DNA of 41,274 bases from a bacterium (GTDB lineage: Bacteria; Patescibacteriota; Saccharimonadia; Saccharimonadales; JAUPVS01): assembly GCA_029780855.1 (NCBI GenBank), contig JAKOXV010000024.1, positions 1 to 41,274 on the forward strand. The letters run 5' to 3'. Positions within the stretch are counted from its first letter, which is position 1. Each line of letters starts with the position of its first letter. This document shows, in pieces, positions 27,013 to 41,274 of the stretch. The notes beneath the pieces were generated by a model. It was not told the DNA's origin and did not search any database. It was given only the letters and a program-made list of their open reading frames with translations. A program made the translations under genes and the position numbers.

Positions 27013-27098
27013 ACTTTGTCTAGTGTACCTCTGATCCAACAGATTGCACAAGGTGTTTTTGTAGTAAAATTTCAGTTATAATGGTCGGGTTACACTGA

Positions 27099-27188
27099 GG
27101 AGAGGTGTCCGAGTGGCTGAAGGAGCACGCTTGGAAAGCGTGTGTGCGGGCAACCGTACCGCGGGTTCGAATCCCGCTCTCTCCGCCA
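27099..27188 (+). tRNA. tRNA-Ser(GGA)
   Basis: GGAGAGG acceptor stem, anticodon arm CACGC-TTGGAAA-GCGTG, long variable arm, GGTTCGAATCC T-loop and encoded CCA. Confidence 0.97.
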
Positions 27189-27229
27189 TTAGGAATATAT
27201 ACTATAATGTTGTGTGATATAGTTAAGCT

Positions 27230-27553
27230 ATGACTGAATATGCTGAACGCTTTTATGCGATAGCTCAAGAACAACAGCACACTCCTAGACGCGCACATCC
27301 AGGTGTACCGGCATTTATTGCTCGGCTTTTTAGGTCCCAGCGACAGTGCGAGCTTGATGCCGTCCACCAATCACTTAATACTAAGAAAAATGAACTGTGG
27401 CAAAACCTATCGTCAGAGGAAAAGGATTACTATGACCCGTTAGCCGTGCTCATTGGCCCGCATGGTCCTGGCATTCCATCCGAAGGCTGGTCCGACACCT
27501 TCGATGAAGAAACGGCACGCAAGATACTCGAATTTCTTCCTGAAGAAGATTAG
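27230..27553 (+). CDS. Hypothetical protein (107 aa)
   Basis: Clean ORF with TGnTATAGT 6 nt upstream of the ATG; no family recognised. Confidence 0.6.
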
Positions 27554-27568
27554 CAACAGAACGAAGTG

Positions 27569-27624
27569 ACGCAGTTTCGTCGTTTACGACTCGTCAGCAT
27601 GATTCATGTACTCATGGACTGCGT
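27569..27624 (-). ncRNA. Type III hammerhead ribozyme (HHR1)
   Basis: Minus strand reads ACGCAGUC^CAUGA-guacaugaa-UCAUG-CUGACGA-GUCG-uaaa-CGAC-GAAACUGCGU. Complete CUGANGA and GAAA core, GUC triplet, perfect stems I (5 bp), II (4 bp) and III (7 bp). Predicted cut between 27617 and 27616. Confidence 0.92.
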
Positions 27625-27809
27625 AGGTGAGAAGAGGTAATGGGATCGCGTGAGCGATCAACCAATAGAGTTCTCCTCACAGGAGATTAGCGTTCTCCCG
27701 AACGGGTTGTTTTGTTATAGGCACTACGACGCCCAAACACGTACACCGAACCACCGGCGGCTCAAGTTTACTTGTTTTATTAGCCTTGAGTAGCTAGCAC
27801 ATCATCCGA

Positions 27810-28505
27810 TCAGTCCGACGTCTCTCCGTCATCGATGACGGCAGTCGCCTGACCGTTGGAGCCATGGCCGTTCATGGAGCCGTTGCCGAGGCTCTTCATG
27901 AGCATGGCTCCGAGTCCACCGACGATGTCCTGGTTGCCCTGTGGGGTGATGTGCATCACCTTGAGCTCCATCGGGTCGACTTGTTGCATCGCCGTCTCCG
28001 TGCCGTGGGAGATGATCTCTCCGAACGTCTCGGTGGGGGTGATGACAACGAAGCCGATGGGATGGATGGGGGCAGTCGTGCCTGGCGGCAGAACGGGACG
28101 CTGGACACCTCGCATGCCGCCGTTGTACAGGAAGTGGCGGACGTCCTCGAAGTTGCCGAACTCCGCCTTGTAGGTGGCGGACTTGGCGCCCGTCGGAAGC
28201 GGCACCCCGACCTGCGAGATGACCAACCCGATGTGATCAGGGGGGACCTGAACCCACGGGTAGCGCTTGACCGAGTAGAACGGCCAGACCTTGATGCGCA
28301 TGCCGGGCATGAGCAGGTCGGCCTGGTAGCCGGCCTCACCGTTGAGGGCGATCAGGCTGTTGCTCTTCTTGCCGAAGCGCTTGGTGACGAGACCGACCTG
28401 GCTCGGGTCGATCGCGTGGAATGAATTCTTGAGCACCAGCAACACGAGGAGTGCCACCAGTACTACGGGGATGATGATTTGGAAAGGAACGCTGTCCAGG
28501 TTCAT
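27810..28505 (-). CDS. GC-rich flotillin/SPFH-family-related membrane protein, apparently internally deleted (231 aa)
   Basis: Start MNLDSV at 28505 behind AGAGAAAGAGG. TM helix, then VGLVTKRFG, IALNGEAGYQADLLMPG and RGVQRPVLPPG as recalled for N-termini of long flotillin-like proteins. No Band-7 core or coiled coil visible. A sample line is 41/60 GC. Confidence 0.7.
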   Translation of the reverse strand: MNLDSVPFQIIIPVVLVALLVLLVLKNSFHAIDPSQVGLVTKRFGKKSNSLIALNGEAGYQADLLMPGMRIKVWPFYSVKRYPWVQVPPDHIGLVISQVGVPLPTGAKSATYKAEFGNFEDVRHFLYNGGMRGVQRPVLPPGTTAPIHPIGFVVITPTETFGEIISHGTETAMQQVDPMELKVMHITPQGNQDIVGGLGAMLMKSLGNGSMNGHGSNGQATAVIDDGETSD

Positions 28506-28547
28506 TGAACCTCTTTCTCTGTTGGTGAATGGAGGACAAGCTAAAAA

Positions 28548-28576
28548 ATTATAGTATCTTTTTGTAATATAGTCAA
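28548..28576 (-). promoter_or_regulatory. Near-consensus sigma70 promoter TTGACT-N17-TATAAT for the SPFH-like gene
   Basis: -35 at 28576-28571, -10 at 28553-28548, spacer exactly 17 nt. Confidence 0.85.
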
Positions 28577-28649
28577 TATAATGTGCCTCATACAATACAG
28601 CTTCCGCTTCCTTAGCAGCACAGCCTGAAGCTGCTATACTTTTGCATAT

Positions 28650-29447
28650 ATGAAGATTTATAGTTGGAATGTAAACGGCATACGTGCCGTAGTGCGCAAA
28701 GAAGCACTCGAACCGTTTATCAAGAAGCACCAGCCAGACATCCTATGTCTCCAAGAAACAAAGGCAGAGCAGGGTCAGGCGGTAATTGATCTGCCCGAGT
28801 ACGAGGAATACTGGAACTCATCTAAGACCAAGAAAGGTTACTCCGGAACGGCGATATTCACAAAAATCAAGCCGATTTCCGTCCACAACGATATTCCAGA
28901 AAAGTTTGTAAAGTCAGCCGGACTGCTTGCCGATAGTTATGGTCATAGCAATGACGAAGGACGGGTGATGACAGCAGAGTTTAAAGACTTTTTTCTCGTT
29001 ACTGCATATACACCAAATGCCAAGGATGACCTAACCCGCATCCCGTTACGAGAAAAATGGGATCAGGCGATGATAGCGTACTGTGCAGACCTGCAAAAAA
29101 AGAAACCTGTCGTGTACTGTGGAGATATGAATGTGGCGCATACGGAAGACGACCTAGCTAACCCAAAGCCAAATATTGGCAAAAAAGGGTTTACCGCAGA
29201 AGAACGTTCAGGTTTTGACGACTGGCTGGCAGCTGGGTTTGTTGACACGTTCCGTATGTTTAAACAAGGAAATGGCTACTACACCTGGTGGAGCCATTTT
29301 GCCAATGCTCGCGCTCGTAACGTTGGCTGGCGGATAGACTACTTCCTCGTTTCCGATGCGCTCAAAAGCAACGTAAAGACCGCTGATATTCACCCCGACA
29401 TTACCGGCTCGGACCACTGTCCGGTCAGTATAGAATTGGAGATATGA
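28650..29447 (+). CDS. xth: Exodeoxyribonuclease III / AP endonuclease
   Basis: SWNVNGIRA, LCLQETK, GYSGTA, GDMNVAH, GWRIDYF and GSDHCP. Confidence 0.95.
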   Translation: MKIYSWNVNGIRAVVRKEALEPFIKKHQPDILCLQETKAEQGQAVIDLPEYEEYWNSSKTKKGYSGTAIFTKIKPISVHNDIPEKFVKSAGLLADSYGHSNDEGRVMTAEFKDFFLVTAYTPNAKDDLTRIPLREKWDQAMIAYCADLQKKKPVVYCGDMNVAHTEDDLANPKPNIGKKGFTAEERSGFDDWLAAGFVDTFRMFKQGNGYYTWWSHFANARARNVGWRIDYFLVSDALKSNVKTADIHPDITGSDHCPVSIELEI

Positions 29448-29929
29448 TGGACACCAAGGAATGTTCGTTAGTATTCTTGCGTCGAGACGACGAAATACTC
29501 TTAGCCATGAAAAAACGTGGTTTTGGAGCAGGTCGCTACAACGGCGTTGGAGGCAAGCTTGACCCTGGCGAATCGGTTGAGCAGACCATGATCCGAGAAT
29601 GCGAGGAGGAAATCGTCGTAACACCTACCGAATACGAAAAGGTAGCCTATCATGATTTTGTCGGTGAAGATGAGGAGGGTAACAAATGGCGGATGTTAGT
29701 ACATGCTTTTGTCGCCACAGCCTGGCAAGGTGATCCTGTTGAAACAGAAGAAATGGCACCTGAATGGTTTAAGCTCAGCAATATACCATACGACAGTATG
29801 TGGTCAGATGATCGCTACTGGCTACCACAAGTTTTGGCGGGAAAATACGTAATGGGAAGATTCACGTTCAACAAAGACGATGAGATGCTCGATAAACAGG
29901 TGGAAGTAGTCGAACACTTAGAGAGCTAG
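29444..29929 (+). CDS. NUDIX hydrolase (8-oxo-dGTP diphosphatase, NUDT1/MutT-like)
   Basis: LLAMKKRGFGAG..NG.GGK...GE......IRECEEE Nudix box; EEMAPEWF and IPY..MW.DD.YW. Confidence 0.9.
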   Translation: MMDTKECSLVFLRRDDEILLAMKKRGFGAGRYNGVGGKLDPGESVEQTMIRECEEEIVVTPTEYEKVAYHDFVGEDEEGNKWRMLVHAFVATAWQGDPVETEEMAPEWFKLSNIPYDSMWSDDRYWLPQVLAGKYVMGRFTFNKDDEMLDKQVEVVEHLES

Positions 29930-29961
29930 CGCAATCCGCGGCGAGTGCTACACTGGTACGT

Positions 29962-30630
29962 ATGAGAGAAAATGTCGCCGCAGGACAATGGAATACGACC
30001 TGTGAAGAAGTAGAATCGGAGATTGCACCACCGGTTACCTTTGTGGAATCGATTCTTTTTCATCTTTCCAAACACGCCAATGCGCGAGGACTGCACATCG
30101 GGTGCGACGACGGTAGAAATTTCTTCCCACTGCTGGATGCGGGGATAGATATCTCAGGCGTTGACGTTTCAGATTCGGCCGTGCAGCAGTTGCGCCAAAG
30201 TCGTCCTGACCTTGCAGATAAAATCAGTTGTATCAATGTTCTCGAAATTAGCTCCGAACAATACGATTTTTTGGTCTCCATAGAGGCGTTCCAGCACGGC
30301 AGTTGGGAAGTCGTCGAACAGTATTTTGAAAAGTGCGACGAGCTGCTGAAGGCGGGAGGATTACTGTTCTTACGCGTTAACGCATGTAATACAGAATTGA
30401 ATCGTCAGCACACCGTTACGCAGATGAGCCCGAGCGGCAGCTTCACGGTACGTTGCTTAGAAGGCGAAGAATCGGGTCAAGAAATCCACTTTTTTTCCCA
30501 ACAAGAGCTGGGTTTTCTAGCCGAAGATTTTGGGTTTGATATTCTCTCGCCACCGCAGGAGATACAGAGCGTCAGAGGGGATGGAACGACTAGCAGTCAA
30601 TGGGAGACCGTATGGCAAAAGTGCATATGA
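29962..30630 (+). CDS. Class I SAM-dependent methyltransferase
   Basis: LHIGCDDGRN (motif I variant), GVDVS, YDFLVS and LKAGGLLF. Confidence 0.8.
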   Translation: MRENVAAGQWNTTCEEVESEIAPPVTFVESILFHLSKHANARGLHIGCDDGRNFFPLLDAGIDISGVDVSDSAVQQLRQSRPDLADKISCINVLEISSEQYDFLVSIEAFQHGSWEVVEQYFEKCDELLKAGGLLFLRVNACNTELNRQHTVTQMSPSGSFTVRCLEGEESGQEIHFFSQQELGFLAEDFGFDILSPPQEIQSVRGDGTTSSQWETVWQKCI

Positions 30631-31337
30631 AGAAATTCGCCGTATTTGATATCGATGGCACGCTTATCAGGTGGCAGCTGTACCATGCCGTAGTCGATCG
30701 ACTCGCAAAACGCGAATTGCTTGGTAGCGGCGCTAGTGAATCACTTCGTGAAGCTCGGATGAAATGGAAGCGCCGTGAGCATAGCGAAGCGTTTAAAGAG
30801 TACGAAAAGGCTCTGATAACTATCTATGAATCTGCGTTAAAGCAGCTACCAGTCTCTGAGTTTGACGAAGCGGTACACGACATCGCTAAGGAGTACAAAG
30901 AACAAACATACACCTATACTCGCGATCTTATTGCTGAGCTTAAATCAAAAGATTATTTTTTGCTGGCTATTTCCGGTTCTCAAACGGAAATCGTTGAGCA
31001 GATTGCCCAAATGTACGGATTTGATGATTTCGTCGGCACTATCTATGAAAGATCCAGCGGTGCATTCACCGGCAAGAGCTTTATTGCGAGCCTGAACAAA
31101 CGGCAGGTTCTAGAAGCGCTTATAAAAAAACATGGCTTACGCACAGAAGGCAGTATTGCGGTAGGCGATAGCTTAAGCGACGTAGCAATGCTCGAAATGG
31201 TGGAGCGCCCAATTGCCTTTAATCCAGATACGCAGCTGTTCAGTGAGGCAAAAGTGCGACACTGGCCAATCATCATTGAGCGAAAAAATGTAATCTACCA
31301 TTTGGAGTACCGAAATGGAAGCTACGTATTGGCATAG
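30627..31337 (+). CDS. HAD-IB family hydrolase (SerB-like)
   Basis: FDIDGTL, ISGS, K and GDSLSD..ML motifs. ATGA overlap with the upstream gene supports the 30627 start. Confidence 0.88.
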   Translation: MKKFAVFDIDGTLIRWQLYHAVVDRLAKRELLGSGASESLREARMKWKRREHSEAFKEYEKALITIYESALKQLPVSEFDEAVHDIAKEYKEQTYTYTRDLIAELKSKDYFLLAISGSQTEIVEQIAQMYGFDDFVGTIYERSSGAFTGKSFIASLNKRQVLEALIKKHGLRTEGSIAVGDSLSDVAMLEMVERPIAFNPDTQLFSEAKVRHWPIIIERKNVIYHLEYRNGSYVLA

Positions 31338-32112
31338 ACAAACACTGGAAACACCGCTATTTGACGACATGCTCTGGAGCCGTCCTGAAAACAAACGGCA
31401 TGCTGGTAAATTACTGATTATCGGCGGTAACTTGCACGGTTTTTCCGCTCCGGCACAGGCATACTCGGATTGCGTAAAAGCCGGTGCCGGTACGGCAAAA
31501 GTTCTACTTCCCAACGCTCTCCAAAAAACGGTTAGTTCTATCCTAGAAAACGGCGACTACGCACCGAGTACTCCGAGCGGCAGCTTTTCTCGTCAAGCTA
31601 TGGCCACATGGATCGATGCTGCAGCTTGGGCCGATGGTACATTACTCGCAGGGGATCTTGGAAGAAACAGTGAAACTGCCATAACGATCGAGCAATTCTG
31701 CACAAAATATACGGGACCACTGACTATAACCAAGGATGCCATAGACTACTTTTATACGAACCCCTCCGTAATACTAGACCGCCCAAATACGGCTCTGGTA
31801 CTTTCACTGGCGCAACTGCAGAAGCTCTGTCAGACGGCTAAGTGGCCGGATCCGGTTACCTTTGGCATGGATCTGCTGCAACTAGTCGATCTACTGCATG
31901 CCCTCACCAGCCAGAAATCACTGACTATAGTTGTATATCATCTGGAATCAATACTGGTTGCCAGCAGGGGAATGGTAAGTTCTACCCGGGTAGGTAGCCG
32001 TGATAGCTGGCGGAGTATTACCGCCTCTTATGCAACAGTATGGTGGATCCAAAACCAGCAAAAACCGTTTGAGGCCATAACTACAAGCATTTTTGACGCG
32101 TTTGGTCCATAA
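31315..32112 (+). CDS. YjeF C-terminal / NnrD-like (ribokinase-fold) protein, divergent
   Basis: RPENK...GKLLIIGG....F.AP......AGAG matches the NnrD N-terminus; the C-terminal nucleotide-binding motif is not recognisable. Confidence 0.65.
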   Translation: MEATYWHRQTLETPLFDDMLWSRPENKRHAGKLLIIGGNLHGFSAPAQAYSDCVKAGAGTAKVLLPNALQKTVSSILENGDYAPSTPSGSFSRQAMATWIDAAAWADGTLLAGDLGRNSETAITIEQFCTKYTGPLTITKDAIDYFYTNPSVILDRPNTALVLSLAQLQKLCQTAKWPDPVTFGMDLLQLVDLLHALTSQKSLTIVVYHLESILVASRGMVSSTRVGSRDSWRSITASYATVWWIQNQQKPFEAITTSIFDAFGP

Positions 32113-32154
32113 TGAATGCTGGTAATTTTTATAAAAATATTGTATAAATAAGGT

Positions 32155-33171
32155 ATGTCTTCGCAAGAATACAGTCCGTCATTTTTTGGCGCAGACCGCA
32201 ACCGGGAAGATCTATCTCCTGAGCAACAGTTCGCACACTACTATCTCCAATGTGGAGATCTTAGTTTACGGGCTGATTTGTTGCGCCATGTTGGTGATGT
32301 GCTCGTTAACTCAAAAGACCATGACCTACGCTATTTAGGTGCTTGGGCGTACTTGGAGGCTGCCCAGCCTGGTCTGTTTAGTATGGAAGAACCTGCCCAG
32401 ACTAACCAATCAGATACCAGTACCGCAGAACTAAATACCCGAGCATTTGACGTATTTTCTGCACTGCAACGCCGAACTCCTTACGTTGTAGAACCAGAGG
32501 ATATGGCACGGAGAAGTATTAATAACTATTTTTTCGGCATTAGAGCACAGCTTACAGGAAACCTAAAGCCTAGCTTTAGCACACCAGACAGGTACCGAAA
32601 CGGTCAAATAACCCAAAAAGTGGCTGAAAACTATGCCCAAACGGCCGTAGAACTGCGCCGCCAGGATGAGCGCTTGACAGCTATCCGAAGAAATTTATCG
32701 GCAAATGATGGTGAAATATTCGAAAAAACTGCTGAATTACAGGGAAGAACCCGCGGTCTGGAAGTCGAAAACATGCTGCTTGGGCTCAGTTGGACGGATC
32801 TTTCTAACGGCGGCGATTTATTGCTTTTGCCAGCATCACCTCGCCTAGATTTTGCGTTCAAAGAGGGGAGTGAACCGGTCGACATCATAGCGATCGATCG
32901 CCAGACAGAAGAACACCTTGGAATATCCACCAAACGAGATGCCTACTATTCACGCAAAAATGGCTATCAGGCCCCCGAAGATCGGAGAATTTTGGAACTC
33001 TACGGAGATAGGGACTTAGGTTTAGAGCCAATGATTAGCCGATTCCTCTATGAACCGGGTGAATTTACCGGTTTTGACCCTAGACTCGCCCGAAGGGTTA
33101 TGACGATCTTAGAACGCCGGTTTGAAGAAATCAGAGCCGAAACACCAGCTACCACAGCTTCTACCACGTAA
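32155..33171 (+). CDS. Hypothetical protein, possible C-terminal PD-(D/E)xK-like fold
   Basis: 338-aa ORF with E...D...PVDII...LGISTK pattern. Confidence 0.55.
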   Translation: MSSQEYSPSFFGADRNREDLSPEQQFAHYYLQCGDLSLRADLLRHVGDVLVNSKDHDLRYLGAWAYLEAAQPGLFSMEEPAQTNQSDTSTAELNTRAFDVFSALQRRTPYVVEPEDMARRSINNYFFGIRAQLTGNLKPSFSTPDRYRNGQITQKVAENYAQTAVELRRQDERLTAIRRNLSANDGEIFEKTAELQGRTRGLEVENMLLGLSWTDLSNGGDLLLLPASPRLDFAFKEGSEPVDIIAIDRQTEEHLGISTKRDAYYSRKNGYQAPEDRRILELYGDRDLGLEPMISRFLYEPGEFTGFDPRLARRVMTILERRFEEIRAETPATTASTT

Positions 33172-33200
33172 AACACCCCAGCGATGCTAGGGTGTTTTAC
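33168..33200. terminator. Bidirectional intrinsic terminator between the 338-aa ORF and tRNA-Leu
   Basis: GTAAAACACCC...GGGTGTTTTAC 11-bp inverted repeat with A and T tracts at both ends. Confidence 0.8.
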
Positions 33201-33202
33201 TT

Positions 33203-33287
33203 TGGTGGGCAAGGAGGGAATCGAACCCTCACTCCTTGCGGAACACGATTTTGAGTCGTGCGCGTATACCAGTTCCGCCACTTGCCC
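33203..33287 (-). tRNA. tRNA-Leu(CAA)
   Basis: Reverse complement GGGCAAGTGGCGGAACTGGTATACGCG-CACGA-CTCAAAA-TCGTG-...-GGTTCGATTCC-...-CTTGCCCACCA. Confidence 0.97.
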
Positions 33288-33362
33288 AGGGTAGATACGG
33301 GTGGGATATCGGGGAGTATTGTACTATACTTTAATCTGTTAAGGCTAGTATAAGCACTATCA

Positions 33363-34553
33363 ATGGATCCTAGAGATAACCCAATAACCAGCGACAATCA
33401 AACTGAACCACAATCATCTGATGGTCAGTTAGCTGCTGATGTAATACGGCACAAGATTGATTCACTGTATGATTCTGAACCGAATGCTGCAGAAGAACAG
33501 CAGGAGGTCAAACTAGTTACCCCACGCTCCAAGCATCAACAGTTCATGTACGAGCTCACCAACTCTGGTAAATCTCTTGCAGAAATCCAAACCGACTGGC
33601 ATAACTACTATGAAAACCTACCGGATAACGAAAAGCATGAGGTCTGGCAGGAGTTCTACGCAAATCACGCCAAAGCGAAGGAAGCTGTCAAAACCGCTTC
33701 TTTAAAACAAACAGCCGAACCCGTTTCAGTTCTTGAACAACCTCCCTCTACTCCAGACACGCGGAGAACCGACAAACGGAGCGTAGAATCCATAAAGGAG
33801 CAGATTCTTGGAACCGTCAATGCCCGCGGTAAATTGAGCGCCAAACACCACCTACAGTCGCTGCTTTTCGGCCTGGGAGTAGGCACAATCGTGGTTCTTA
33901 TATTTCTGTTTGGATTTTTCAACGAACGGTTTATCGCGCCATTCATCACCCCAAGCCGTACGGTAAGCAATACGCCGATTATTATTGATCCTAACAATAC
34001 TGCTGTCAGTAATAAGCCAGAAGTTATCATTCCAAAAATTAACGTTGAGATTCCGGTGATCTATGAACAAAAGAGCGTCGATGAAGAGTCAATCCAAAAA
34101 GCTCTCGAAGACGGCGTGGTCCACTATTCCACAACCTCAAGTCCCGGTGAAGTAGGAAATACAGTAATTTTTGGCCACTCTAGCAACAATATACTAAACA
34201 AGGGCAAGTATAAGTTTGCATTTGTGCTACTGCATAAACTCGAAATAGGCGATACGTTCATGCTTACCAAAGACGGAAAGCGGTATGTGTATAAGGTATA
34301 CGAGAAAAAGGTAATCCCCCCAACCGACGTATCGGTACTGGGGCCAACCGATAAAACTGCCACCGCAACCCTCATCACCTGTGATCCACCCGGCACGTCA
34401 ATAAACCGATTGGTGGTAATCGGCGAACAAATCACTCCTGATCCGAGCACCAACACGGCGAGCACCGCCATACACTCCAACAAAACACCGACAATCGTCC
34501 CAAGTAACGCACCAAGCTTATGGCAGCGGATACTTGACTGGTTCCGTCGGTAG
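33363..34553 (+). CDS. Sortase with long N-terminal cytoplasmic extension
   Basis: TM helix near aa 165-185, then IPKINV..PV, GNTVIFGHSS (His), TLITC (Cys) and RLVV (Arg). Confidence 0.9.
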   Translation: MDPRDNPITSDNQTEPQSSDGQLAADVIRHKIDSLYDSEPNAAEEQQEVKLVTPRSKHQQFMYELTNSGKSLAEIQTDWHNYYENLPDNEKHEVWQEFYANHAKAKEAVKTASLKQTAEPVSVLEQPPSTPDTRRTDKRSVESIKEQILGTVNARGKLSAKHHLQSLLFGLGVGTIVVLIFLFGFFNERFIAPFITPSRTVSNTPIIIDPNNTAVSNKPEVIIPKINVEIPVIYEQKSVDEESIQKALEDGVVHYSTTSSPGEVGNTVIFGHSSNNILNKGKYKFAFVLLHKLEIGDTFMLTKDGKRYVYKVYEKKVIPPTDVSVLGPTDKTATATLITCDPPGTSINRLVVIGEQITPDPSTNTASTAIHSNKTPTIVPSNAPSLWQRILDWFRR

Positions 34554-34556
34554 CAG

Positions 34557-36035
34557 CTACTTAACCAGAGACAAATCTAGATCGGTTTTTGTAAGCGCAA
34601 ACTGCCCCGGAGTGCTCACCGAAGGACTCACGGTATACAACCTACGGTAATCACGATCAAAGAAGACCTTAAAGCCTGGATTGTTGGCGGTTAGGGTCTG
34701 GACATTTATTCCATCGTAATCAAACACTACGAGCTTACCTCCGCTCGTAATATACATACGGTGACCATCCATCCAATAGGCATGCATTCCGCCATCTAGG
34801 GGCAGGGCAAGTTCATAGCGGAAGTTTCGCTTACTTTCAGCATCATACACTGCAAACTTGCTTCCGCCCTCCGCCACCATAAACCGAGCGTTCTCCGAAA
34901 ACGCGGCATATGTCGGTTGTTCAGCCCTCAACACTGCCACAATCCGGAGCGGATTTGAAGTCTGGTGCTTAAGGGCGTCCCAGGCATTGAGATAGACATA
35001 CACCTTATTTTCGGCTTTGGAACCGGCCATCATATACCAGTCACCATCAAACTTAGCTACATCCAGAAGGTACACGTCGCTTGCTGCTACCTCTCTAAGT
35101 AAATAGTTACCGCTACCATCTTTTACCATTACGCGCGTCATACCCGGAGCAGCTTTTTGGGTAGTGGCGAACAGCAGCACATCATTACCATATGATTTGA
35201 AATCTAAAACGCTTTCAACTATCGGCGTTACCAGCTTGTCCTTCAGTTCGGCAGTCGAAAGTTTTTGCGTGGTAGCATCGTAGAAATAGTAGCGGTCATA
35301 ACTTTTATCCCGGAGCGATACTTTGGTTGGATTCACCAAAAAAGTCTTGTTTATGTTGAATGAATTCGCCGGTGTATCACGATCAATTAGCAGAAATTCA
35401 GAACCACCGCTAAAATCATGTCGCAAAAGGACGTGTTTGTTATCGGTAGACCATTCGACCGCCGTAAGGCTGCCCGTAGACGGAGCAGTTTCGATATCTG
35501 CTGGGATAGTAATGGCAGTCGGTGCCTTTTTTGGATCGTTGGCATCATAGACATCAAATATCGTGGTTTGCCCCGGCTTTTGGACGAGAATCCAGTGCCG
35601 GTCTGGGCTTTGGGTAGCCAACTGCGGAGTCGTGGGATATACCTGTTCGTCCGCAGTATTTAGGTTAACCGGGAACAAGAACGGGTACACAAACCGTTCA
35701 ATTGTTCCGCCAACCAAACTGAACGTTCGTTGCCACGGGCGGTAGCCGTCCCTTTTTAGTTCTAGTTTATAAATATCAGACGGCAGGACCAGACGTGCTC
35801 CAGAATTTGTTTTATAAAGCTTGTTGTTCAGGTAAATACTAGCTTGCTGTGGTTGTGCAGAAACAAACACTAACCCGTTCTGAATGATATCGCCAGTTTT
35901 TCGGTTGAGGTCATAGCCACGCGATTGAAAAATCAGAATAAGACTGCCTAAACCGATCATTACGGCTATCAGGAAATAACCGACGAATAATCGTATCTTA
36001 TGAGCTCGTTTTTTGGCGGGGTCTAAAAAATCCAT
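34557..36035 (-). CDS. PEGA-domain membrane-anchored protein with probable beta-propeller
   Basis: N-terminal TM, GLVFVSAQPQQASIYLN...YKLELKRDGYRPW (PEGA-like), then SPD/WS/FS turn repeats. Start probably MDFL at 36035. Confidence 0.75.
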   Translation of the reverse strand: MDFLDPAKKRAHKIRLFVGYFLIAVMIGLGSLILIFQSRGYDLNRKTGDIIQNGLVFVSAQPQQASIYLNNKLYKTNSGARLVLPSDIYKLELKRDGYRPWQRTFSLVGGTIERFVYPFLFPVNLNTADEQVYPTTPQLATQSPDRHWILVQKPGQTTIFDVYDANDPKKAPTAITIPADIETAPSTGSLTAVEWSTDNKHVLLRHDFSGGSEFLLIDRDTPANSFNINKTFLVNPTKVSLRDKSYDRYYFYDATTQKLSTAELKDKLVTPIVESVLDFKSYGNDVLLFATTQKAAPGMTRVMVKDGSGNYLLREVAASDVYLLDVAKFDGDWYMMAGSKAENKVYVYLNAWDALKHQTSNPLRIVAVLRAEQPTYAAFSENARFMVAEGGSKFAVYDAESKRNFRYELALPLDGGMHAYWMDGHRMYITSGGKLVVFDYDGINVQTLTANNPGFKVFFDRDYRRLYTVSPSVSTPGQFALTKTDLDLSLVK

Positions 36036-36206
36036 ATATATTTTTGATGTAGCACTTCCAGTTATACCACGGATACGCCACACCGTCACGTAAGTATACG
36101 CTTTTTAGCTGAGAAATATCCCTTGCAATAACAGGGGAGTTAGGGGTACTATTAAACAAGTAGGTACCATAAGCGATATTCGGTACAACATGTAAGAGGG
36201 TAGAAC

Positions 36207-37280
36207 GTGCGAAAAACCAACACAATCATTGAGCTTAACGGCAAGCATTACGATGCACATACCGGCCGGCTGCTCCATAGCAAAGACTCTGGTGAAACAA
36301 AGCCAGCGGCATCGCACACTCCCAAAAAAGGCACGAATATGGATGGCTTCGTACGCGCCAAGCCACGAACCAGCTCAACCGCGCGGCGGCAGCCCACTGT
36401 CGCTCAGCGCAAAAGAGAGCACTCAAAAACACTAATGCGCCATGTTGTCCAAAAACCAAAAGCCGCACAAAAAACCCCAACCGCCGCACATTCCGCCACA
36501 AAAACCACCGCTCTACCCGCTATAACAACCCCGGCGGACCTGTTTGCGCTCCGTGATAAACGAGCATTTAGTATCAAAAAAAGCCCACTCATCAGCCGTT
36601 TTGGCGAACCGGCGCATGCTGCACCAGTTAATAAAAAATACGCTCCGCTTGCCGTCACACCAGCACCAGAACACAAAAAAGTTGCAACACACAAGCACCC
36701 GGCACGAACCCACACTTCTCATTCAGACCACATTGCGAAGGCGTTAACCAACGCTTCTAGCCACAAAGCCAACAAAATCCGGAAAAAGCGGATTCATCAT
36801 CGCGTCGCTAAAAAGCTAGGAATCAGCGCCACGGCAGTTAGTGTTTCAGCCGCCGCTTTGGCATTTGTCATGCTTGGTGGGTTTTATGCCTACCAAAATG
36901 TCCCGAACATAGCCATGCGCGTAGCCGCTAGTAAGGCGGGCTTTAACGCTTCAATGCCGGGGTACGTTCCATCTGGTTTTGCAATGAACGGTAAGATCCA
37001 AGCAGCTTCTGGGCGCATTACGGTTAGTTTCTCGTCGCGTACTGATAACCGAAACTTTCAGCTGATCCAAGAGCCATCAGACTGGAACAGTAAATCACTA
37101 CTTGATAACTACGTGGCCAGTGCGAGCAAAAACTATCAGTCCGTAGAATCAAAAGGGAATACCATCTACATTTACGATGGATCAAATGCCACCTGGGTAA
37201 ATCAGGGCATATGGTATCAAATACACGGCAGCTCCGATCTCAATAGCCAGCAGCTACTCAATATCGCTTCAAGCATGTAG
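36207..37280 (+). CDS. Membrane protein with basic disordered N-terminus and DUF4367-like extracellular domain
   Basis: K/H/A/P-rich ~200 aa, one TM, then P.YVPSGF...ATWVNQGIWYQI.G..L....LL.IA.SM. Confidence 0.7.
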   Translation: MRKTNTIIELNGKHYDAHTGRLLHSKDSGETKPAASHTPKKGTNMDGFVRAKPRTSSTARRQPTVAQRKREHSKTLMRHVVQKPKAAQKTPTAAHSATKTTALPAITTPADLFALRDKRAFSIKKSPLISRFGEPAHAAPVNKKYAPLAVTPAPEHKKVATHKHPARTHTSHSDHIAKALTNASSHKANKIRKKRIHHRVAKKLGISATAVSVSAAALAFVMLGGFYAYQNVPNIAMRVAASKAGFNASMPGYVPSGFAMNGKIQAASGRITVSFSSRTDNRNFQLIQEPSDWNSKSLLDNYVASASKNYQSVESKGNTIYIYDGSNATWVNQGIWYQIHGSSDLNSQQLLNIASSM

Positions 37281-37312
37281 ATATTTGTGCGATTTTATGA
37301 TTTAATATATCT

Positions 37313-37483
37313 ATGAGCTTTTTTGAAGAAAGCAATGCTCTAACCAACGAACTGATAGTCGCCACCGAACAAATGGGTGTATTCCTGGGAGCCGTAGCGC
37401 TCGCCGGGTACGGTGCATATAAAGCGATAAAAGCGGTACACGACTCCGCTCAAACACCACCGGATAATTACCCCGAAAATTAA
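37313..37483 (+). CDS. Small single-pass membrane protein (56 aa), below ORF-track cutoff
   Basis: MSFFEESNALTNELIVATEQMGVFLGAVALAGYGAYKAIKAVHDSAQTPPDNYPEN fills the intergenic gap; an AT-rich -10-like element lies just upstream. Confidence 0.55.
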   Translation: MSFFEESNALTNELIVATEQMGVFLGAVALAGYGAYKAIKAVHDSAQTPPDNYPEN

Positions 37484-37503
37484 ATATCAGATACAATACA
37501 GCT

Positions 37504-38931
37504 ATGTCCAAAACCCGTACCAGATTCGCTCCAAGCCCGACCGGTTATTTACACGTCGGTGGAATTCGTACCGCACTATTTGCGTTTCTTTTGGCTCGTC
37601 AAAACAAAGGTCAGTTTATACTGCGATTAGAGGATACTGACCAGAAACGAGAGGTTAAAGGTGCAGACCAGCACATTATTGATAGTCTGCATGCGTTATG
37701 GATCGAGTACGACGAAGGACCAGACAGCGGTGGGCCACACGCCCCGTACCGCCAAAGCGAACGGCTGGAAATATATAAGAAATGGGCCCAAAAACTTATC
37801 CAATCTGGTAGGGCATATGCCGATCCTTATACACCACAAGAAGTTCAGGCCTTCAGGGAACAAGCGCAAAAGGACAAGAAGCCTTTTCTGTATCGGAATC
37901 ATCGGCCGAAAAATCCTCCGGCATGGGACGGGAGTCAACCATTACGATTTAAATCAGAGCCAAAGCCGTACCAATGGAACGATGCGGTAATGGGAGAACT
38001 GTCTACCGGACCAGAAGTGATTGATGATTTTATACTAGTAAAAAGCGATGGTTTTCCTACCTATAACTTCGCCCACATTGTGGATGATGCGGACATGCAG
38101 GTAAGCCACGTAATCCGCGGGCAGGAATTCTTGGCAAGCGTGCCAAACTACCTCAACCTCTACGAAGCGCTCGATATTACACCGCCCGTTCTTGCTACCA
38201 TGCCGCACATTTTAGGCACGGACGGAAATAAAAAACTTTCCAAACGTGACGGTGCCAAAGACGTGCTGGATTATATAAGAGAAGGGTACTTACCCGAAGC
38301 GCTTATAAGCTTCATTGCCACATTAGGGTGGAATGATGGAACTACCCAAGAAGTGTTTACGCTGGAAGAGCTTATCAAAAAATTCAGCTTAGAGCGGGTT
38401 GGACGGTCTGGTGCACATTTTGACGAGCGACGCCTGCAATGGGTTAACGGCCACTTTATCAGAACTATTGACAGCGGTGCTTTATACACCCTGTGTCAAG
38501 AGTTCTGGCCAAAAGAGGCTACCGACTACGATGACGAATACAAAAAGTCAGTGCTTGAACTAATAAAAGAGCGGATGAAGTTTTTGGCTGAACTTCCAGA
38601 GCTTTCGCGCTTCTTTTTTGTAGATCTACCAGTAGACGAAACGTTGATTAGCTCACACAAGCAGCTAAAAAAGATGGACTCCGACGAACTCAAAACGCTT
38701 CTTAACGCTGCTAAGGCAGAGCTTGCAGAAAGCGATTTCAGTGCCACAGATCTCACGAACCGGCTCAATGGGCTACTTACCATCACACATACCAAACCAG
38801 CCGTCCTCTTCAGCCTCATTCGTATCGCTACGACCCAAGCAGCAGCTAGTCCCGGCCTCGCCGAAACTCTCCACGTACTGGGGAAAGAACGATCGCTAGA
38901 CCGCATTGACACACAGCTTGAAGCGCTCTAA
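37504..38931 (+). CDS. gltX: Glutamate--tRNA ligase
   Basis: RTRFAPSPTGYLHVGG (HIGH), LRLEDTD, PYRQSER, PTYNFA..VDD, HVIRG and KLSKR. Confidence 0.97.
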   Translation: MSKTRTRFAPSPTGYLHVGGIRTALFAFLLARQNKGQFILRLEDTDQKREVKGADQHIIDSLHALWIEYDEGPDSGGPHAPYRQSERLEIYKKWAQKLIQSGRAYADPYTPQEVQAFREQAQKDKKPFLYRNHRPKNPPAWDGSQPLRFKSEPKPYQWNDAVMGELSTGPEVIDDFILVKSDGFPTYNFAHIVDDADMQVSHVIRGQEFLASVPNYLNLYEALDITPPVLATMPHILGTDGNKKLSKRDGAKDVLDYIREGYLPEALISFIATLGWNDGTTQEVFTLEELIKKFSLERVGRSGAHFDERRLQWVNGHFIRTIDSGALYTLCQEFWPKEATDYDDEYKKSVLELIKERMKFLAELPELSRFFFVDLPVDETLISSHKQLKKMDSDELKTLLNAAKAELAESDFSATDLTNRLNGLLTITHTKPAVLFSLIRIATTQAAASPGLAETLHVLGKERSLDRIDTQLEAL

Positions 38932-38934
38932 AAC

Positions 38935-38964
38935 AAAAAAACTCCACGCAACGATACCGTAGAG
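38935..38964 (-). terminator. Intrinsic terminator for the GC-rich 114-aa gene
   Basis: Minus strand CUCUACG-N9-CGUGGAG (one G-U) followed by U7. Confidence 0.7.
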
Positions 38965-39020
38965 CATACTGTTTGTCATGTAAGTAAAAATGGCAGATGA
39001 GTTTGGAGAGCGATACGCAA

Positions 39021-39084
39021 GTGGTGGCAGGGAAGCCGATTGTTTGTCGCGACTGCAACGAAAACTTTGGCTCCCTGCCACCAC
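39021..39084. other. Long 3'-UTR hairpin with 13-bp perfect stem
   Basis: GTGGTGGCAGGGA (39021-39033) pairs with TCCCTGCCACCAC (39072-39084), 11 nt downstream of the minus-strand stop codon. Confidence 0.75.
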
Positions 39085-39095
39085 CATGGATCTGC

Positions 39096-39440
39096 TCAGA
39101 CCACGAGCGGCGGATCGAGCACGAAGCCCTTCACGCGCAGGATCTCGTGCGCCTCGCGGATGAAGAGCATCAGCTGACGGACGGACCGGCTGGTCTTGAT
39201 GGCCAGGTTGCCGGGCTCGGCTCCCTTCAGGGTGAGGGAGAACTCCGTGACGTCTCCGAGATCGAAGATCTCCCGGATGGCCTCGCGGATCGGGCCGGGC
39301 ATGCGCTCGCCGCTCTCGTTGGGACGATCGAGCGAGGTGAAGTGGCCGTGTCCGGTCACGTAGTTGCCGTCGAGGGGGATATGAACCCATCCTCCACGCC
39401 AGAGTCTCACCCGTGGTTTCACTGCGGTGCTTCCTGACAT
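39096..39440 (-). CDS. GC-rich hypothetical protein (114 aa)
   Basis: Start MSGSTAVK at 39440 behind GAGAAAGG. Codons are mostly G/C-ending (sample line 40/60 GC). Has its own promoter and terminator; no family recognised. Confidence 0.7.
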   Translation of the reverse strand: MSGSTAVKPRVRLWRGGWVHIPLDGNYVTGHGHFTSLDRPNESGERMPGPIREAIREIFDLGDVTEFSLTLKGAEPGNLAIKTSRSVRQLMLFIREAHEILRVKGFVLDPPLVV

Positions 39441-39468
39441 AGTCGGGGTACCTTTCTCTCGCATTGTA

Positions 39469-39519
39469 TGGCTACAGCTACCACCGGTAAGGGAACAGTA
39501 CCAGTAATAGCTATAGCCA
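39469..39519 (-). promoter_or_regulatory. 21-bp 5'-UTR hairpin
   Basis: UGGCUAUAGCUAUUACUGGUA pairs with UACCGGUGGUAGCUGUAGCCA. All four non-Watson-Crick positions are G-U on the minus strand, which points to an RNA-level structure on that strand. Confidence 0.75.
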
Positions 39520-39577
39520 ACACACTCATCTGCCAAGGTGCGTTTGAGAGCTTAAAACTCAATCAAACTTGAACTTT

Positions 39578-39606
39578 ATTATACTTTATTTTTTAGTATT
39601 AGTCAA
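39578..39606 (-). promoter_or_regulatory. Near-consensus sigma70 promoter TTGACT-N17-TATAAT for the 114-aa gene
   Basis: -35 at 39606-39601, -10 at 39583-39578, spacer exactly 17 nt. Same hexamers as the promoter at 28548-28576. Confidence 0.85.
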
Positions 39607-39626
39607 GCAATTCATAAGCGGTATAG

Positions 39627-39854
39627 CTACGCTTGAGCCTCAAAACGCTGGACTGCATCGGTGACATCTTTAGCTAATCGGTCTATCTTTTGTTCTAGCA
39701 GTTCAATCTCATCTTCTACATGGGCTAGCTTGGCGAGCGACGTCGCGGTCATACTCTTCAGCTTCTCGGCTTGGGCATTGGCGTCGTTAAGCCGAGCTTC
39801 GCTTTCATAAGGATCCCAAAAACTAAATTGTTCTTCATCAAAATTATCTGTCAT
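39627..39854 (-). CDS. Small coiled-coil hypothetical protein (75 aa), backbone-like GC
   Basis: MTDNFDEEQFSFWDPY...LAHVEDEIELLEQKIDRLAKDV heptads. The ATG directly follows HHR2; the longer 39995 start would run through the structured RNA. Confidence 0.55.
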   Translation of the reverse strand: MTDNFDEEQFSFWDPYESEARLNDANAQAEKLKSMTATSLAKLAHVEDEIELLEQKIDRLAKDVTDAVQRFEAQA

Positions 39855-39857
39855 TTT

Positions 39858-39915
39858 TGCTACCTTTCGTCCTTTTGGACTCATCAGCGTAAGCACACAC
39901 TTACGGAGGATAGCA
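39858..39915 (-). ncRNA. Type III hammerhead ribozyme (HHR2)
   Basis: Minus strand reads UGCUA-u-CCUC^CGUAAG-ugugug-CUUACG-CUGAUGA-GUCC-aaaa-GGAC-GAAAGG-UAGCA. Complete core, CUC triplet, stem I 6 bp, stem II 4 bp, stem III 8 bp with one bulged U. Predicted cut between 39906 and 39905. Confidence 0.92.
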
Positions 39916-40046
39916 CGGAGTGGTTGATTCAGAAGAGGGAAGAGTCTTACGCTGGAGGCGTAATGCTCGATTCCATTCTGAACCAACACACTCACGTGAC
40001 CTGAAATTCAGGATTTGTGAACGGATGTTCCGTTCAGGAGGGAAGG

Positions 40047-40295
40047 TCAGCCGTTGGCGACCTTCCCGGCGACGACGACGACGGCACCCGGCTCGAGCTG
40101 GTCGTCGGGCTCGATCTGGCGGCCGTTGGCCGTGATGGCCTTGCCGCCGGAGATGTCCACCCCCGCCTTGTCCAGGTACCCACCGGCGGTGAGCCCCGGC
40201 TCGTAGTCGAGGGTCTGGCTGTCACCGCCGAACTCGGCGATCCGAACCGTCCCGGCCGGGACGACCTCGTCCGGCGTCAACACGTCTGCTGCCAT
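40047..40295 (-). CDS. Ubiquitin-like (beta-grasp, ThiS/MoaD-like) protein ending in Gly
   Basis: 82 aa with beta-grasp pattern (T....L...G.......ITANG......QL.PG.VVVV) and C-terminus KVANG. SD AAGGAG; directly downstream of an E1-like gene. Confidence 0.8.
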   Translation of the reverse strand: MAADVLTPDEVVPAGTVRIAEFGGDSQTLDYEPGLTAGGYLDKAGVDISGGKAITANGRQIEPDDQLEPGAVVVVAGKVANG

Positions 40296-40308
40296 GATGC
40301 ACTCCTTC

Positions 40309-40965
40309 TCACGTTGTTGAGAACTGCATGGTCTTGAGGTCCGACATGATGTTGCTTCGGTACGACTCCTTTCTAATGAAGAGGGTGAGCTGCGCCACCA
40401 TCAGTCCCGCGAGGGTGGTGGGTGGATGAATCACCGTCCGGGCTGCACAAGGCAGCTCGGCCGCTTCCTCATCCGGGAAGAGCCACTGCTCGTACTCCGC
40501 CTGGGCATCGAAGTCCGACGGATTGAGTGACAGTAGCTGGAACTGCTCGCCACCGATGCGACCGTCCATGAAGAACGGCACCAGTGGGTTGAACTTCACC
40601 GCCTGCCAGATGCCCATACGGCTGGCCATGGAATCCACACCGGCGATCACCACACCACTGAGTTCTGACGTCGAGGTGACGTGCTCCTCGTGGATGGTGA
40701 CCTCACAGGTGGAACCCTGGCGCTCGACAAAATCCATGGCCGCTTTGGCCTTGGACATGCCGATGTCGTCGGGACGGTAGATGAGCTGGGCCGGGATGTT
40801 GTGCGGCTCCACCTCATCACTGTCCCAGAGCACCAGATCCTTGATGCCGAGCTTCATCAGCGGCAGCAGTACGGCAGAGCCGATACCGCCCAGGCCGACG
40901 AGGTGCACCGGCCAAGCGAAGGCCTCGGGATCGAAGATCTTCAACTGATCACCGTAGTCGATCAT
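40309..40965 (-). CDS. ThiF/MoeB/E1-family adenylyltransferase
   Basis: VGLGGIGS, WDSDEVEPHNIPAQ, IG.SKA, GVDSM.SR and DGRIGG. Candidate catalytic Cys in AELPCAAR; no CxxC zinc sites. Confidence 0.9.
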   Translation of the reverse strand: MIDYGDQLKIFDPEAFAWPVHLVGLGGIGSAVLLPLMKLGIKDLVLWDSDEVEPHNIPAQLIYRPDDIGMSKAKAAMDFVERQGSTCEVTIHEEHVTSTSELSGVVIAGVDSMASRMGIWQAVKFNPLVPFFMDGRIGGEQFQLLSLNPSDFDAQAEYEQWLFPDEEAAELPCAARTVIHPPTTLAGLMVAQLTLFIRKESYRSNIMSDLKTMQFSTT

Positions 40966-41274
40966 CAGTCATCACCGACCCTCAGAGCAAGCGGCTCCAG
41001 GGAACCGGCGAACAGCAGCACATCATCCTGCCTCACCGAACGGTTGGGCAGGAGCGGACGGTGCTGCTTGACCTTCCGGGCGATCTCCCGCCGGCACTCG
41101 TCCTGGATGAGGACATCCGAGGGAACCCGCACCCGCAGCTGGAGCGGCGTCCAAGCCCTGTAGGGCCTGAACATGTCCAGACGCAGATCGAACTCCCCGC
41201 GCTTGTTCAGCACCAAGCTGACCATCCAGTCCGCCTGGTAGTCCTCGATGTTCCGAAGATCCACCGAGGAGAAG
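40965..41274 (-). CDS. JAB/MPN-domain metallopeptidase, 3' part only (runs off window end)
   Basis: The frame is open to the window edge and begins FSSVDLRNI...WMVSLVLNKRGE. This fits the S-x2-D tail of the JAMM motif and the following strand. The HxH lies outside the window. TGATG overlap with the E1 start. Confidence 0.65.
   Translation of the reverse strand, partial: FSSVDLRNIEDYQADWMVSLVLNKRGEFDLRLDMFRPYRAWTPLQLRVRVPSDVLIQDECRREIARKVKQHRPLLPNRSVRQDDVLLFAGSLEPLALRVGDD

Follow-up and report, generated by a model that had tools for sequence, protein, structure and literature searches.

Ribozyme-linked, GC3-rich gene units in a Saccharimonadales genome as candidate accessory-gene cassettes

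The subject of this study is a group of gene units located at positions 1-41274 of contig C15 in the Saccharimonadales genome G000 (this whole stretch is referred to as the window), in which open reading frames (ORFs) with a high GC content at the third codon position (GC3) are combined with promoters, structured untranslated regions (UTRs) and, in many cases, a type III hammerhead ribozyme. Phage morons are stand-alone units of promoter, gene and terminator which are inserted between resident genes and deviate from them in composition. Unlike morons, the units described here are GC-richer, not AT-richer, and a helix followed by a hammerhead replaces the terminator. In mRNAs of the hok type, which encode a harmful small membrane protein, the 5' and 3' ends pair with each other, and the message is thereby compact, stable and translated poorly. 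End pairing and a cargo comprising many small membrane proteins are features shared by the present units, whereas an antisense RNA gene was not seen, a ribozyme instead of slow exonucleolytic trimming is predicted to form the 3' end, and the cargo is far more varied.

The association of hammerhead ribozymes with genes has already been known since 2011. According to the available text of Perreault et al. [quoted passage not shown] They resemble the ribozymes reported here in their intergenic location, in flanking genes or blocks of varying identity and in occurring several times per strand. The present units differ from them in that most have their own near-consensus promoter, GC3-rich cargo and a leader capable of pairing, and in that they are located in a Saccharimonadales chromosome, often by topA, with no integrase or phage genes seen nearby.

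Pairing between the 5' and 3' UTR has been reported for icaR of Staphylococcus aureus (PMC3868564) and for hbs of Bacillus subtilis (PMC5737220). Similar to these two mRNAs, the present units carry a 3' UTR element that is complementary to their own leader or Shine-Dalgarno (SD) site, several of these elements being CU-rich anti-SD sequences, and such pairing would be expected to affect translation and the access of RNases. Unlike in icaR and hbs, the 3' arm lies immediately 5' of a predicted self-cleaving ribozyme, and the design recurs on unrelated cargos.

A literature search returned nothing that connects the biology of Saccharibacteria, Patescibacteria or the candidate phyla radiation with hammerheads or other self-cleaving ribozymes; it did not cover the supplementary hammerhead lists of Perreault et al. 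2011, which may include Saccharibacteria-like metagenome matches. We likewise found no description of consensus promoters for each unit, of a GC3 excess confined to the ORFs or of a 5'-3' clamp, nor of their combination with conserved chromosomal sites in Saccharimonadales. We propose with moderate confidence that the units are autonomous accessory-gene cassettes, widespread in Saccharimonadales, whose mobile genes are expressed from ribozyme-terminated, end-clamped and throttled mRNAs. The role of inter-gene hammerheads has been unsettled since 2011, and this lineage supplies many natural replicates in which the ribozyme position is fixed. Because the ribozyme holds a fixed place in the order promoter, leader, ORF, helix, ribozyme, a concrete role becomes testable, the candidate role being 3'-end formation and insulation without Rho, together with 5'-3' closure of the mRNA.

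Hammerhead ribozymes and the units that carry them

The source genome comprises 872 kb with a GC content of 46% and is 97.8% complete; its relatives according to protein searches are named Candidatus Saccharibacteria or Saccharimonadales. Three units are located in the window, all on the minus strand (units 1 to 3), and two further hammerhead units (uA and uB) lie on C15 beyond the window.

Unit 1 starts with the promoter TTGACT-N17-TATAAT (28548..28576; exact, with 11/12 matches), followed by a 5' leader with an SD site (GAAAGAGG, 28506..28541, counted from a presumed transcript start) and an ORF of 231 aa (27810..28505, GC3 0.85) for an SPFH/Band 7 deletion remnant. Its 3' UTR (27625..27809) contains hairpins and a CU-rich stretch preceding the type III hammerhead 1 (27569..27624), for which cleavage is predicted after position 27617 (GUC). 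Part of this 3' UTR together with the ribozyme shares 72% identity with G020:C25:10688-10822 in a related genome. Unit 3, a four-gene operon, ends in the type III hammerhead 2 (39859..39913), which has one bulge in stem III and a predicted cleavage site after position 39906 (CUC). The sites of predicted cleavage are found 193 nt (unit 1) and 141 nt (unit 3) past the stop codons, which agrees with the distances given in an earlier reading of the window from sequence only (the sequence-only reading). The same reading had stated that the two ribozymes differ in all stems; they were found to differ in stem I, in stem III and, by a single pair, in stem II.

The promoter of unit 2 (39578..39606) is again an exact TTGACT-N17-TATAAT with 11/12 matches. 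Its leader of 131 nt includes a 5' arm (GGCAGATGAGTGTGTTGG, 39517..39534) and precedes an ORF of 114 aa (39096..39440, GC3 0.83) without a known family, and a 3' arm (CCAAACTCATCTGCC, 38992..39006) is followed by AUUUUUA; unit 2 has no hammerhead. The presence of this promoter at both visible 5' ends had been noticed before and was found to be exact at 28576-28548 and 39606-39578. The two sites are the two best promoter-like sites in the range 27000-41274, and they account for two of only four exact copies of the motif in the 872-kb genome. The purine-rich, SD-like runs reported to precede the starts of the units are also present, as read from the sequence. No terminator-like site was detected on the minus strand in any of the three 3' UTRs of the window.

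Hammerhead 1 was recognised by the Rfam model Hammerhead_3 (RF00008) with 48.9 bits, the gathering score being 48.5, and hammerhead 2 gave a match at 39865-39907(-) with 29.2 bits (E 0.0087), which is under the gathering score. Two mutually identical hammerheads were detected further along C15 on the plus strand (67365-67419 and 68078-68132). They reach 20.9 bits with the Rfam model, and the ORFs 5' of them, belonging to uA and uB, have GC3 values of 0.81 and 0.78. A covariance model (R1) was built from 20 related hammerheads of 13 genomes, one row being from G040. The search of G000 with R1 yielded exactly four hammerheads, every one of them located after a GC3 outlier; all four possess the core CUGANGA ... 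GAAA, with the NUH cleavage triplets GUC, CUC, UUC and UUC. Their R1 scores of 60-77 bits (60.5 for hammerhead 1 and 68 for hammerhead 2) follow by construction, because three of the four are in the seed alignment and the fourth is identical to one of these. The alignment of the 20 hammerheads supports three helices with an open stem III: 89.7% of the cells are paired and 15/18 pairs show double changes, compared to 34-46% paired cells in slid controls, and the covariation score was reached by 0/500 shuffles. The ribozymes are real type III hammerheads and are predicted to be self-cleaving.

Matches to R1 were obtained in 58/151 genomes of the order (E <=0.001), with a maximum of 14 per genome, while the Rfam model gave no match in any of eight same-family genomes. 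A phylum-wide sample of 151 genomes revealed 15 genomes outside the order with a match at E <=1e-6. The units therefore represent a class, recurrent in the order, that combines a promoter, a GC3-rich ORF, a structured UTR and a hammerhead, and the suggestion in the sequence-only reading of a dedicated class of ribozyme-linked units is borne out by this recurrence across the order and in independent assemblies. The sharp GC boundaries could also point to an assembly chimera of high-GC reads and a Saccharibacteria contig. This explanation can practically be dismissed: the boundaries fall on start and stop codons, and the recurrence of the same order of promoter, ORF, UTR and ribozyme in independent assemblies and in metagenomes shows that no assembly artefact is involved.

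The exact core with stem II was furthermore detected in 36 IMG/VR contigs, which contain 63 R1 matches. Often a contig has several of these hammerheads on one strand, each immediately preceded by a hairpin and separated by 20-40 nt from the ATG that follows. Together with the prophage hammerheads that flank single genes or short blocks according to Perreault et al. 2011 (PMC3088659), and with the matches of some cargo proteins to Phage_lysozyme2 and several PHROGs, this distribution is consistent with a more conventional explanation. According to it the units are ordinary phage-derived, moron-like units, their hammerheads correspond to the known intercistronic processing sites, their GC content reflects a foreign pool of higher GC under amelioration and the complementarity of their ends is functionless. 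We consider this explanation possible, if rather doubtful. Neither phage structural genes nor an integrase were seen beside the units, although no systematic search for phage structural genes was made, and the neighbours of the units in G000 are tRNA genes, topA, dprA and other resident genes.

Since uB lies between two identical ribozymes, it resembles retrozymes and hammerhead-derived circular RNAs, in which a segment is flanked by hammerhead copies. Unlike in retrozymes, uB has its promoter downstream of the first of these ribozymes, beginning 8 nt 3' of the uA ribozyme, and the genome lacks any match to RVT_1 or RtcB (0 matches each, genome-wide). Given the 97.8% completeness of G000, these two absences led to the rejection of retro-mobility and RtcB-based circularisation for this genome. 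According to the sequence-only reading, no integrase, transposase or reverse transcriptase is present in the window. This holds genome-wide for RVT_1 and, outside of a single Phage_integrase match (a tyrosine recombinase) on contig C9, for the integrase; transposases were not searched.

GC3 excess of the cargo genes

Three GC-rich patches on the minus strand had been described in the window, and both the GC content of 500-nt windows and the GC3 of the ORFs confirm them. The former amounts to 0.624 (28001-28500), 0.612 (39001-39500) and 0.636 and 0.604 (40001-41000), the rest of the window being mostly at 0.40-0.51; the latter amounts to 0.85 in unit 1, 0.83 in unit 2 and, in unit 3, 0.93, 0.80 and 0.83 in the genes of the candidate ubiquitin-like protein, the E1-like protein and the JAB-like protein. 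The earlier estimate of 67-73% GC for the patches was too high for the ORFs, whose total GC is about 0.60-0.71, with the excess mainly at the third codon position. Compared to the baseline of G000 (884 crude ORFs with a mean GC3 of 0.455 and a standard deviation of 0.068), where just 16/884 ORFs reach 0.62, all four hammerheads follow ORFs with a GC3 of at least 0.78.

The excess is confined to the ORFs, the promoters and UTRs of the units being at native GC. Within the cargo of G000 the first and second codon positions are little raised (GC1 0.62 and GC2 0.42 vs 0.55 and 0.39 in the background), and the amino-acid composition is hardly shifted (8.1% Ala vs 8.5% in the background). The genes encoding EF-Tu, EF-G and the ribosomal proteins of G000 have a GC3 of 0.395, and the codons of the cargo are therefore non-preferred. 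Translational optimisation as the cause of the high GC3 was ruled out by this same value.

The link between GC3 and hammerheads was also checked in an independent set comprising 40 loci with 46 hammerheads, none of which had been used in forming the hypothesis. Five of the 46 were dropped from the comparison with the background (four without usable background, one without an upstream ORF). In 38 of the remaining 41 comparisons the ORF 5' of the ribozyme exceeds the local GC3, by +0.20 on average, so that the genome-wide link proposed for checking in the sequence-only reading is found in 4/4 cases in G000 and in 38/41 cases of this sample from the order. The cargo GC3 is higher than that of the nearest upstream neighbour in 37/41 and of the nearest downstream neighbour in 34/40 cases, and the upstream and downstream neighbours differ by only -0.002. 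It follows the resident genome in part (r 0.48, slope 0.56) and is as low as 0.30-0.43 in low-GC genomes. This merely partial tracking fits a moron-like origin. The direction of the excess, which is the same in 38/41 cases, disagrees with it, given that mobile elements and acquired genes tend to have a higher AT content than the host genome, and so do its limitation to the ORFs and the barely shifted amino acids.

High GC in a saccharibacterial gene could point to recent transfer from a high-GC actinobacterial host, in this case behind resident promoters, and the GC3 of the G000 cargo (0.80-0.93) is indeed within the actinobacterial range; the E1 family of unit 3 also occurs on high-GC contigs (locus L092, 48% identity, flank GC 0.63). 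Such a transfer is nevertheless very unlikely. The 147 relatives of the E1 protein at E <=1e-20 share 73% identity at best, and those with names all belong to Saccharibacteria/Saccharimonadales except for one metagenome-assembled genome of Binatia. The absence of any named actinobacterial relative, and of any relative above 73% identity, speaks against the simple horizontal transfer from Actinobacteria that had been considered as an alternative in the earlier reading. A scan of contigs with a two-sequence E1 alignment returned two loci, both from Saccharibacteria. Among plasmids, a tblastn search gave E1 relatives with at most 31% identity (annotated as MoeB or HesA/MoeB/ThiF family) and none for the 372-aa protein encoded next to unit 3. 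Furthermore, UTRs and ribozyme are common to Saccharibacteria units whose proteins share 65% and 42% identity, the contents of Ala (8.1%) and Arg (5.3%) are not those typical of Actinobacteria, and the cargo GC3 of 0.30-0.43 in low-GC genomes does not fit such donors. Recent import from Actinobacteria and codon optimisation are both disfavoured because the excess is local and non-preferred, the amino acids are stable and the UTRs are native.

The sequence-only reading had gone further and suggested, as a possibility, stabilised mRNAs with host-like codon usage whose export to the host would be followed by translation in it. The GC-ending codons, which differ from those used in the translation genes of G000, and the predicted compact and end-protected RNAs would fit this idea, which is extremely improbable all the same. 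The cargo GC3 shifts with the resident genome, the Ala content is Saccharibacteria-like and the relatives of the E1 protein are Saccharibacteria, which does not support host-like codon usage; the presence, among the cargo, of integral membrane proteins and of a conjugation-like operon of several genes having bacterial SD sites fits a use in cis. As to the export itself, nothing in the sequence supports it: the units are not associated with any export signal or machinery, and the same kind of ribozyme is common in phage contigs.

The GC3 excess is compatible with a foreign pool under amelioration, with selection at synonymous sites or with biased gene conversion. Being contrary to the usual AT-richness of acquired genes, an excess of +0.20 needs explaining, for instance by selection on RNA structure, by throttling through codons, by biased gene conversion or by a hidden GC-rich reservoir. 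With regard to annotation, GC-rich islands in Saccharibacteria should not automatically be taken as gene transfers from the host.

Complementary transcript ends and the proposed mode of expression

The complementarity between 3' UTR and leader was measured by an ungapped score and an own-versus-cross test; RNAduplex-type energies, calculated for the pre-ribozyme stretch vs 1.4 kb upstream, were discarded as noisy, since large internal loops were permitted. The leader of unit 1 (GAAAGAGG) is complementary, with one bulge, to ACCTCTTCTC immediately 5' of the ribozyme. Complementarity to the unit's own leader was likewise found for the stretch preceding the ribozyme of uA and uB and for the one preceding AUUUUUA of unit 2, and the minimum free energy (MFE) fold of the whole transcript contains a 5'-3' helix, with 7 or more pairs in unit 2, 11 in uA and 14 in uB. 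The sequences of the arms vary from unit to unit. When each 3' element was ranked against own and foreign leaders, the own pair took rank 1 in 5/22 units of the first set and in 8/44 of the independent sample (binomial p 6e-6), where it was in the top quarter in 22/44. The complementarity of the 3' UTR to the leader or SD site exceeds chance, which speaks against a functionless complementarity in moron-like units.

Anchored helices with an ACAAG/CTTGT core and at least 10 bp were found in 16/68 units, and at one position of these helices each of the four Watson-Crick pairs occurs. An SD-like GGAG is included in six of the 16 5' arms. This list was chosen for pairing and serves as an illustration, not as a test. 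Units of different families have a common leader (arm A, local hairpin, arm B) and trailer (B', A', ribozyme) around unrelated cargo. Compared with dinucleotide shuffles, the whole transcripts of four hammerhead or clamp units of G000 have structure z-scores of -4.3 (unit 1), -6.0 (unit 2), -4.5 and -7.5, whereas four native control genes have -2.3, 0.0, -3.6 and -1.5.

Taken as autonomous cassettes, the units would be expressed as follows. A near-consensus sigma-70 promoter would drive a transcript with a structured leader, one to four GC3-rich ORFs, a 3' UTR helix and often a hammerhead. By cutting the nascent RNA, the ribozyme would fix the 3' end of the mRNA a few bases past the helix, which may be a local hairpin or a long-range pairing with the unit's own 5' leader. 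The cut would substitute for an intrinsic terminator without the help of Rho and without requiring a U tract, and would uncouple the unit from the following one. No match to Rho was detected in G000 at the cut-off, and RNase J is present (477 bits). In the case of the glmS ribozyme of Bacillus subtilis, the downstream fragment with its 5'-OH is degraded by RNase J. By analogy, the downstream fragment of the units would receive a 5'-OH and may be open to RNase J. The product would presumably be a compact mRNA with both ends paired and a 2',3'-cyclic phosphate, in which the 3' arm could act as an anti-SD sequence and throttle translation. The GC-ending codons, opposite to the usage of the translation genes, would add structure and probably lower translation further. 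The outcome would be a long-lived, low-output expression of acquired and possibly harmful accessory genes, such as the operon for the membrane protein, JAB-like, E1 and ubiquitin-like proteins, the small membrane proteins and the ORFans.

Several observations weigh against this interpretation. The MFE fold of unit 1 lacks a 5'-3' helix, 22/44 of the independent units are no better than chance in the own-versus-cross ranking, and the share of units with a clear helix is only about one third to one half. The contrast in z-scores is based on just four units and four controls. GC3-rich units without a hammerhead also exist in G000 (unit 2, C15:70800-71210 and islands on C2, C9, C10 and C17), and the ribozyme is thus not required for the GC excess. 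The phage contigs with the same ribozyme have a slight GC excess upstream of it, and in the E1 operon, which is found in only 5/401 genomes of the order, GC3 is above the flank in just about half of the closer loci; the latter agrees with a foreign pool under amelioration as well as with selection, and such a pool stays viable, in line with the moron-like explanation. In addition, cleavage, transcript ends and mRNA half-lives are predictions from the sequence.

A stronger version of the cassette interpretation, which we regard as unlikely and put forward only tentatively, sees the units as a dedicated expression chassis for acquired genes, made up of a consensus promoter, a conserved leader and trailer by which the two mRNA ends are held together and a hammerhead forming the 3' end, with the synonymous GC enrichment of the cargo being selected or arising via biased gene conversion when cassettes are exchanged at the conserved flanks. 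If it were true, the GC composition would be an RNA-level design for compact, nuclease-resistant and weakly translated mRNAs instead of the mark of a donor, and the conserved flanks at topA and dprA would be a recombination platform for the turnover of cassettes.

Cargo genes and genomic setting

The operon of unit 3 begins beyond the window with the gene of a 438-aa membrane protein (C15:41585-42901, minus strand), followed by the gene of a JAB-like protein (206 aa, C15:40965-41585, its 3' part at 40965..41274 in the window), a ThiF-type E1-like adenylyltransferase (218 aa, 40309..40965) and a putative ubiquitin-like protein (82 aa, 40047..40295). The E1 protein matches ThiF with 81.7 bits and the PADLOC model BilD at 2.4e-12, while the match of the JAB-like protein to Prok-JAB (19.1 bits) is under the cut-off of 25. 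The 82-aa protein, which had no family match, is a candidate by its position after the E1 gene; it ends in ...ANG and shares 42% identity with its G020 counterpart, which ends in ...ING. The joint occurrence of E1 (ThiF), a JAB-like protein and a ubiquitin-like candidate resembles Bil/Bub-type operons (PADLOC BilD). Unit 3 differs from them in the sub-cut-off JAB match, in the membrane protein that leads the operon and in the lack of a recognised E2, none of the E2 families of Pfam and PADLOC being found in the four proteins; since no E2 was recognised, the operon was not assigned to the Bil or Bub systems. The ESM Atlas gave no usable match for the unit 2 protein, and only unnamed, partly phage-linked clusters for the C-terminal part of the 438-aa protein.

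A hammerhead is located 3' of the gene of the ubiquitin-like protein in G000, G020 and G213, the E1 proteins of the latter two sharing 65% and 62% identity with that of G000. Among metagenome loci that share 40% identity or more and offer no less than 650 nt of sequence downstream, the same was found in 10/29; it was found in 0/26 loci at 30-40% identity and 0/15 viral loci. Genome G128 of the order contains three diverged copies of the E1 operon (L074, L077 and L078, with 57%, 56% and 44% identity to the query); the fetched flanks of these copies include no hammerhead, and eight hammerheads are found elsewhere in G128.

The 3' UTR of unit 3 contains a 93-nt module with a long hairpin (39913..40005), which is identical to the 3' UTR of the neighbouring unit upstream (C15 about 43148-43240), encoding the 372-aa protein (GC3 0.92) and a helix-turn-helix-like protein. 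The identity ends exactly at the start of hammerhead 2, in whose place the neighbouring unit has an unrelated hairpin, and the G020 homologue of the neighbouring unit does carry a hammerhead. This suggests a recent conversion or the swapping of modules.

The 231-aa protein of unit 1 shares 62% identity with residues 6-202 of a 681-aa homologue in G020 and in addition matches its residues 639-658. The Band_7 domain of the homologue (65 bits, residues 332-513) lies in the segment that is absent from the unit 1 protein, and the ORF, judging by this alignment, is what an in-frame deletion has left of a gene for a 681-aa membrane protein of the SPFH/Band 7 type. The remnant retains promoter, UTR and ribozyme despite the loss of Band 7, and the gene of the G020 homologue has its own hammerhead 190 nt past the stop codon. 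At the other hammerheads the cargo consists mostly of small membrane proteins and ORFans. The scan of 43 cargo proteins yielded 11 Pfam families with one member each, seven of them of the beta-propeller/WD type (overlapping) and two of the helix-turn-helix type; since most of the 11 families are overlapping beta-propeller types, few cargo proteins matched Pfam at all.

Of 58 hammerhead loci in other genomes of the order, nine are at most about 2.5 kb away from topA, including five in the spacer between dprA and topA (the topA-side loci are L019, L024, L026, L027, L185, L187, L194, L205 and L211). In G000 (C15:65918-71300) the same spacer holds uA and uB, and a further GC-rich unit directly follows topA. 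The neighbourhood of topA and dprA looks like a conserved cassette site.

Unit 1 lies close to the tRNA-Ser(GGA) gene at 27099-27185, about 380 nt from hammerhead 1; another tRNA gene of the window is located at 33206-33287. The gap between tRNA-Ser(GGA) and the next conserved gene varies in content across five same-family genomes, none of which provides a clean empty site. The borders of the unit 1 insertion are undefinable, because the gap in these relatives is occupied by pyrH and other genes.

Between hammerhead 2 and the promoter of unit 2 lies an ORF of 75 aa with ordinary GC and weak coiled-coil-type Pfam matches (39627..39854, minus strand). It begins 5 nt 3' of hammerhead 2, an SD-like GAAAGG being located within the 3' strand of the ribozyme, and cleavage would make the ribozyme body the 5' leader of this ORF, as in phage contigs. 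Among the IMG/VR loci, L037, L041, L049, L061 and L069 have a GC content of 30-50% and three to five one-strand hammerheads at distances of 0.3-3 kb.

Further ORFs without a hammerhead have GC3 values of 0.76-0.92 (C10:17475-18212, C17:149376-151254, C9:166077-166529, C2:27637-28284 and C15:44100-45218), and the one on C10 adjoins an ORF that resembles a signal peptidase by eye. Finally, the region 8001-10000 of the window, which gave no match to Rfam, deviates from its surroundings by a raised GC content (0.49-0.54) and a strongly negative GC skew (-0.23 to -0.29).

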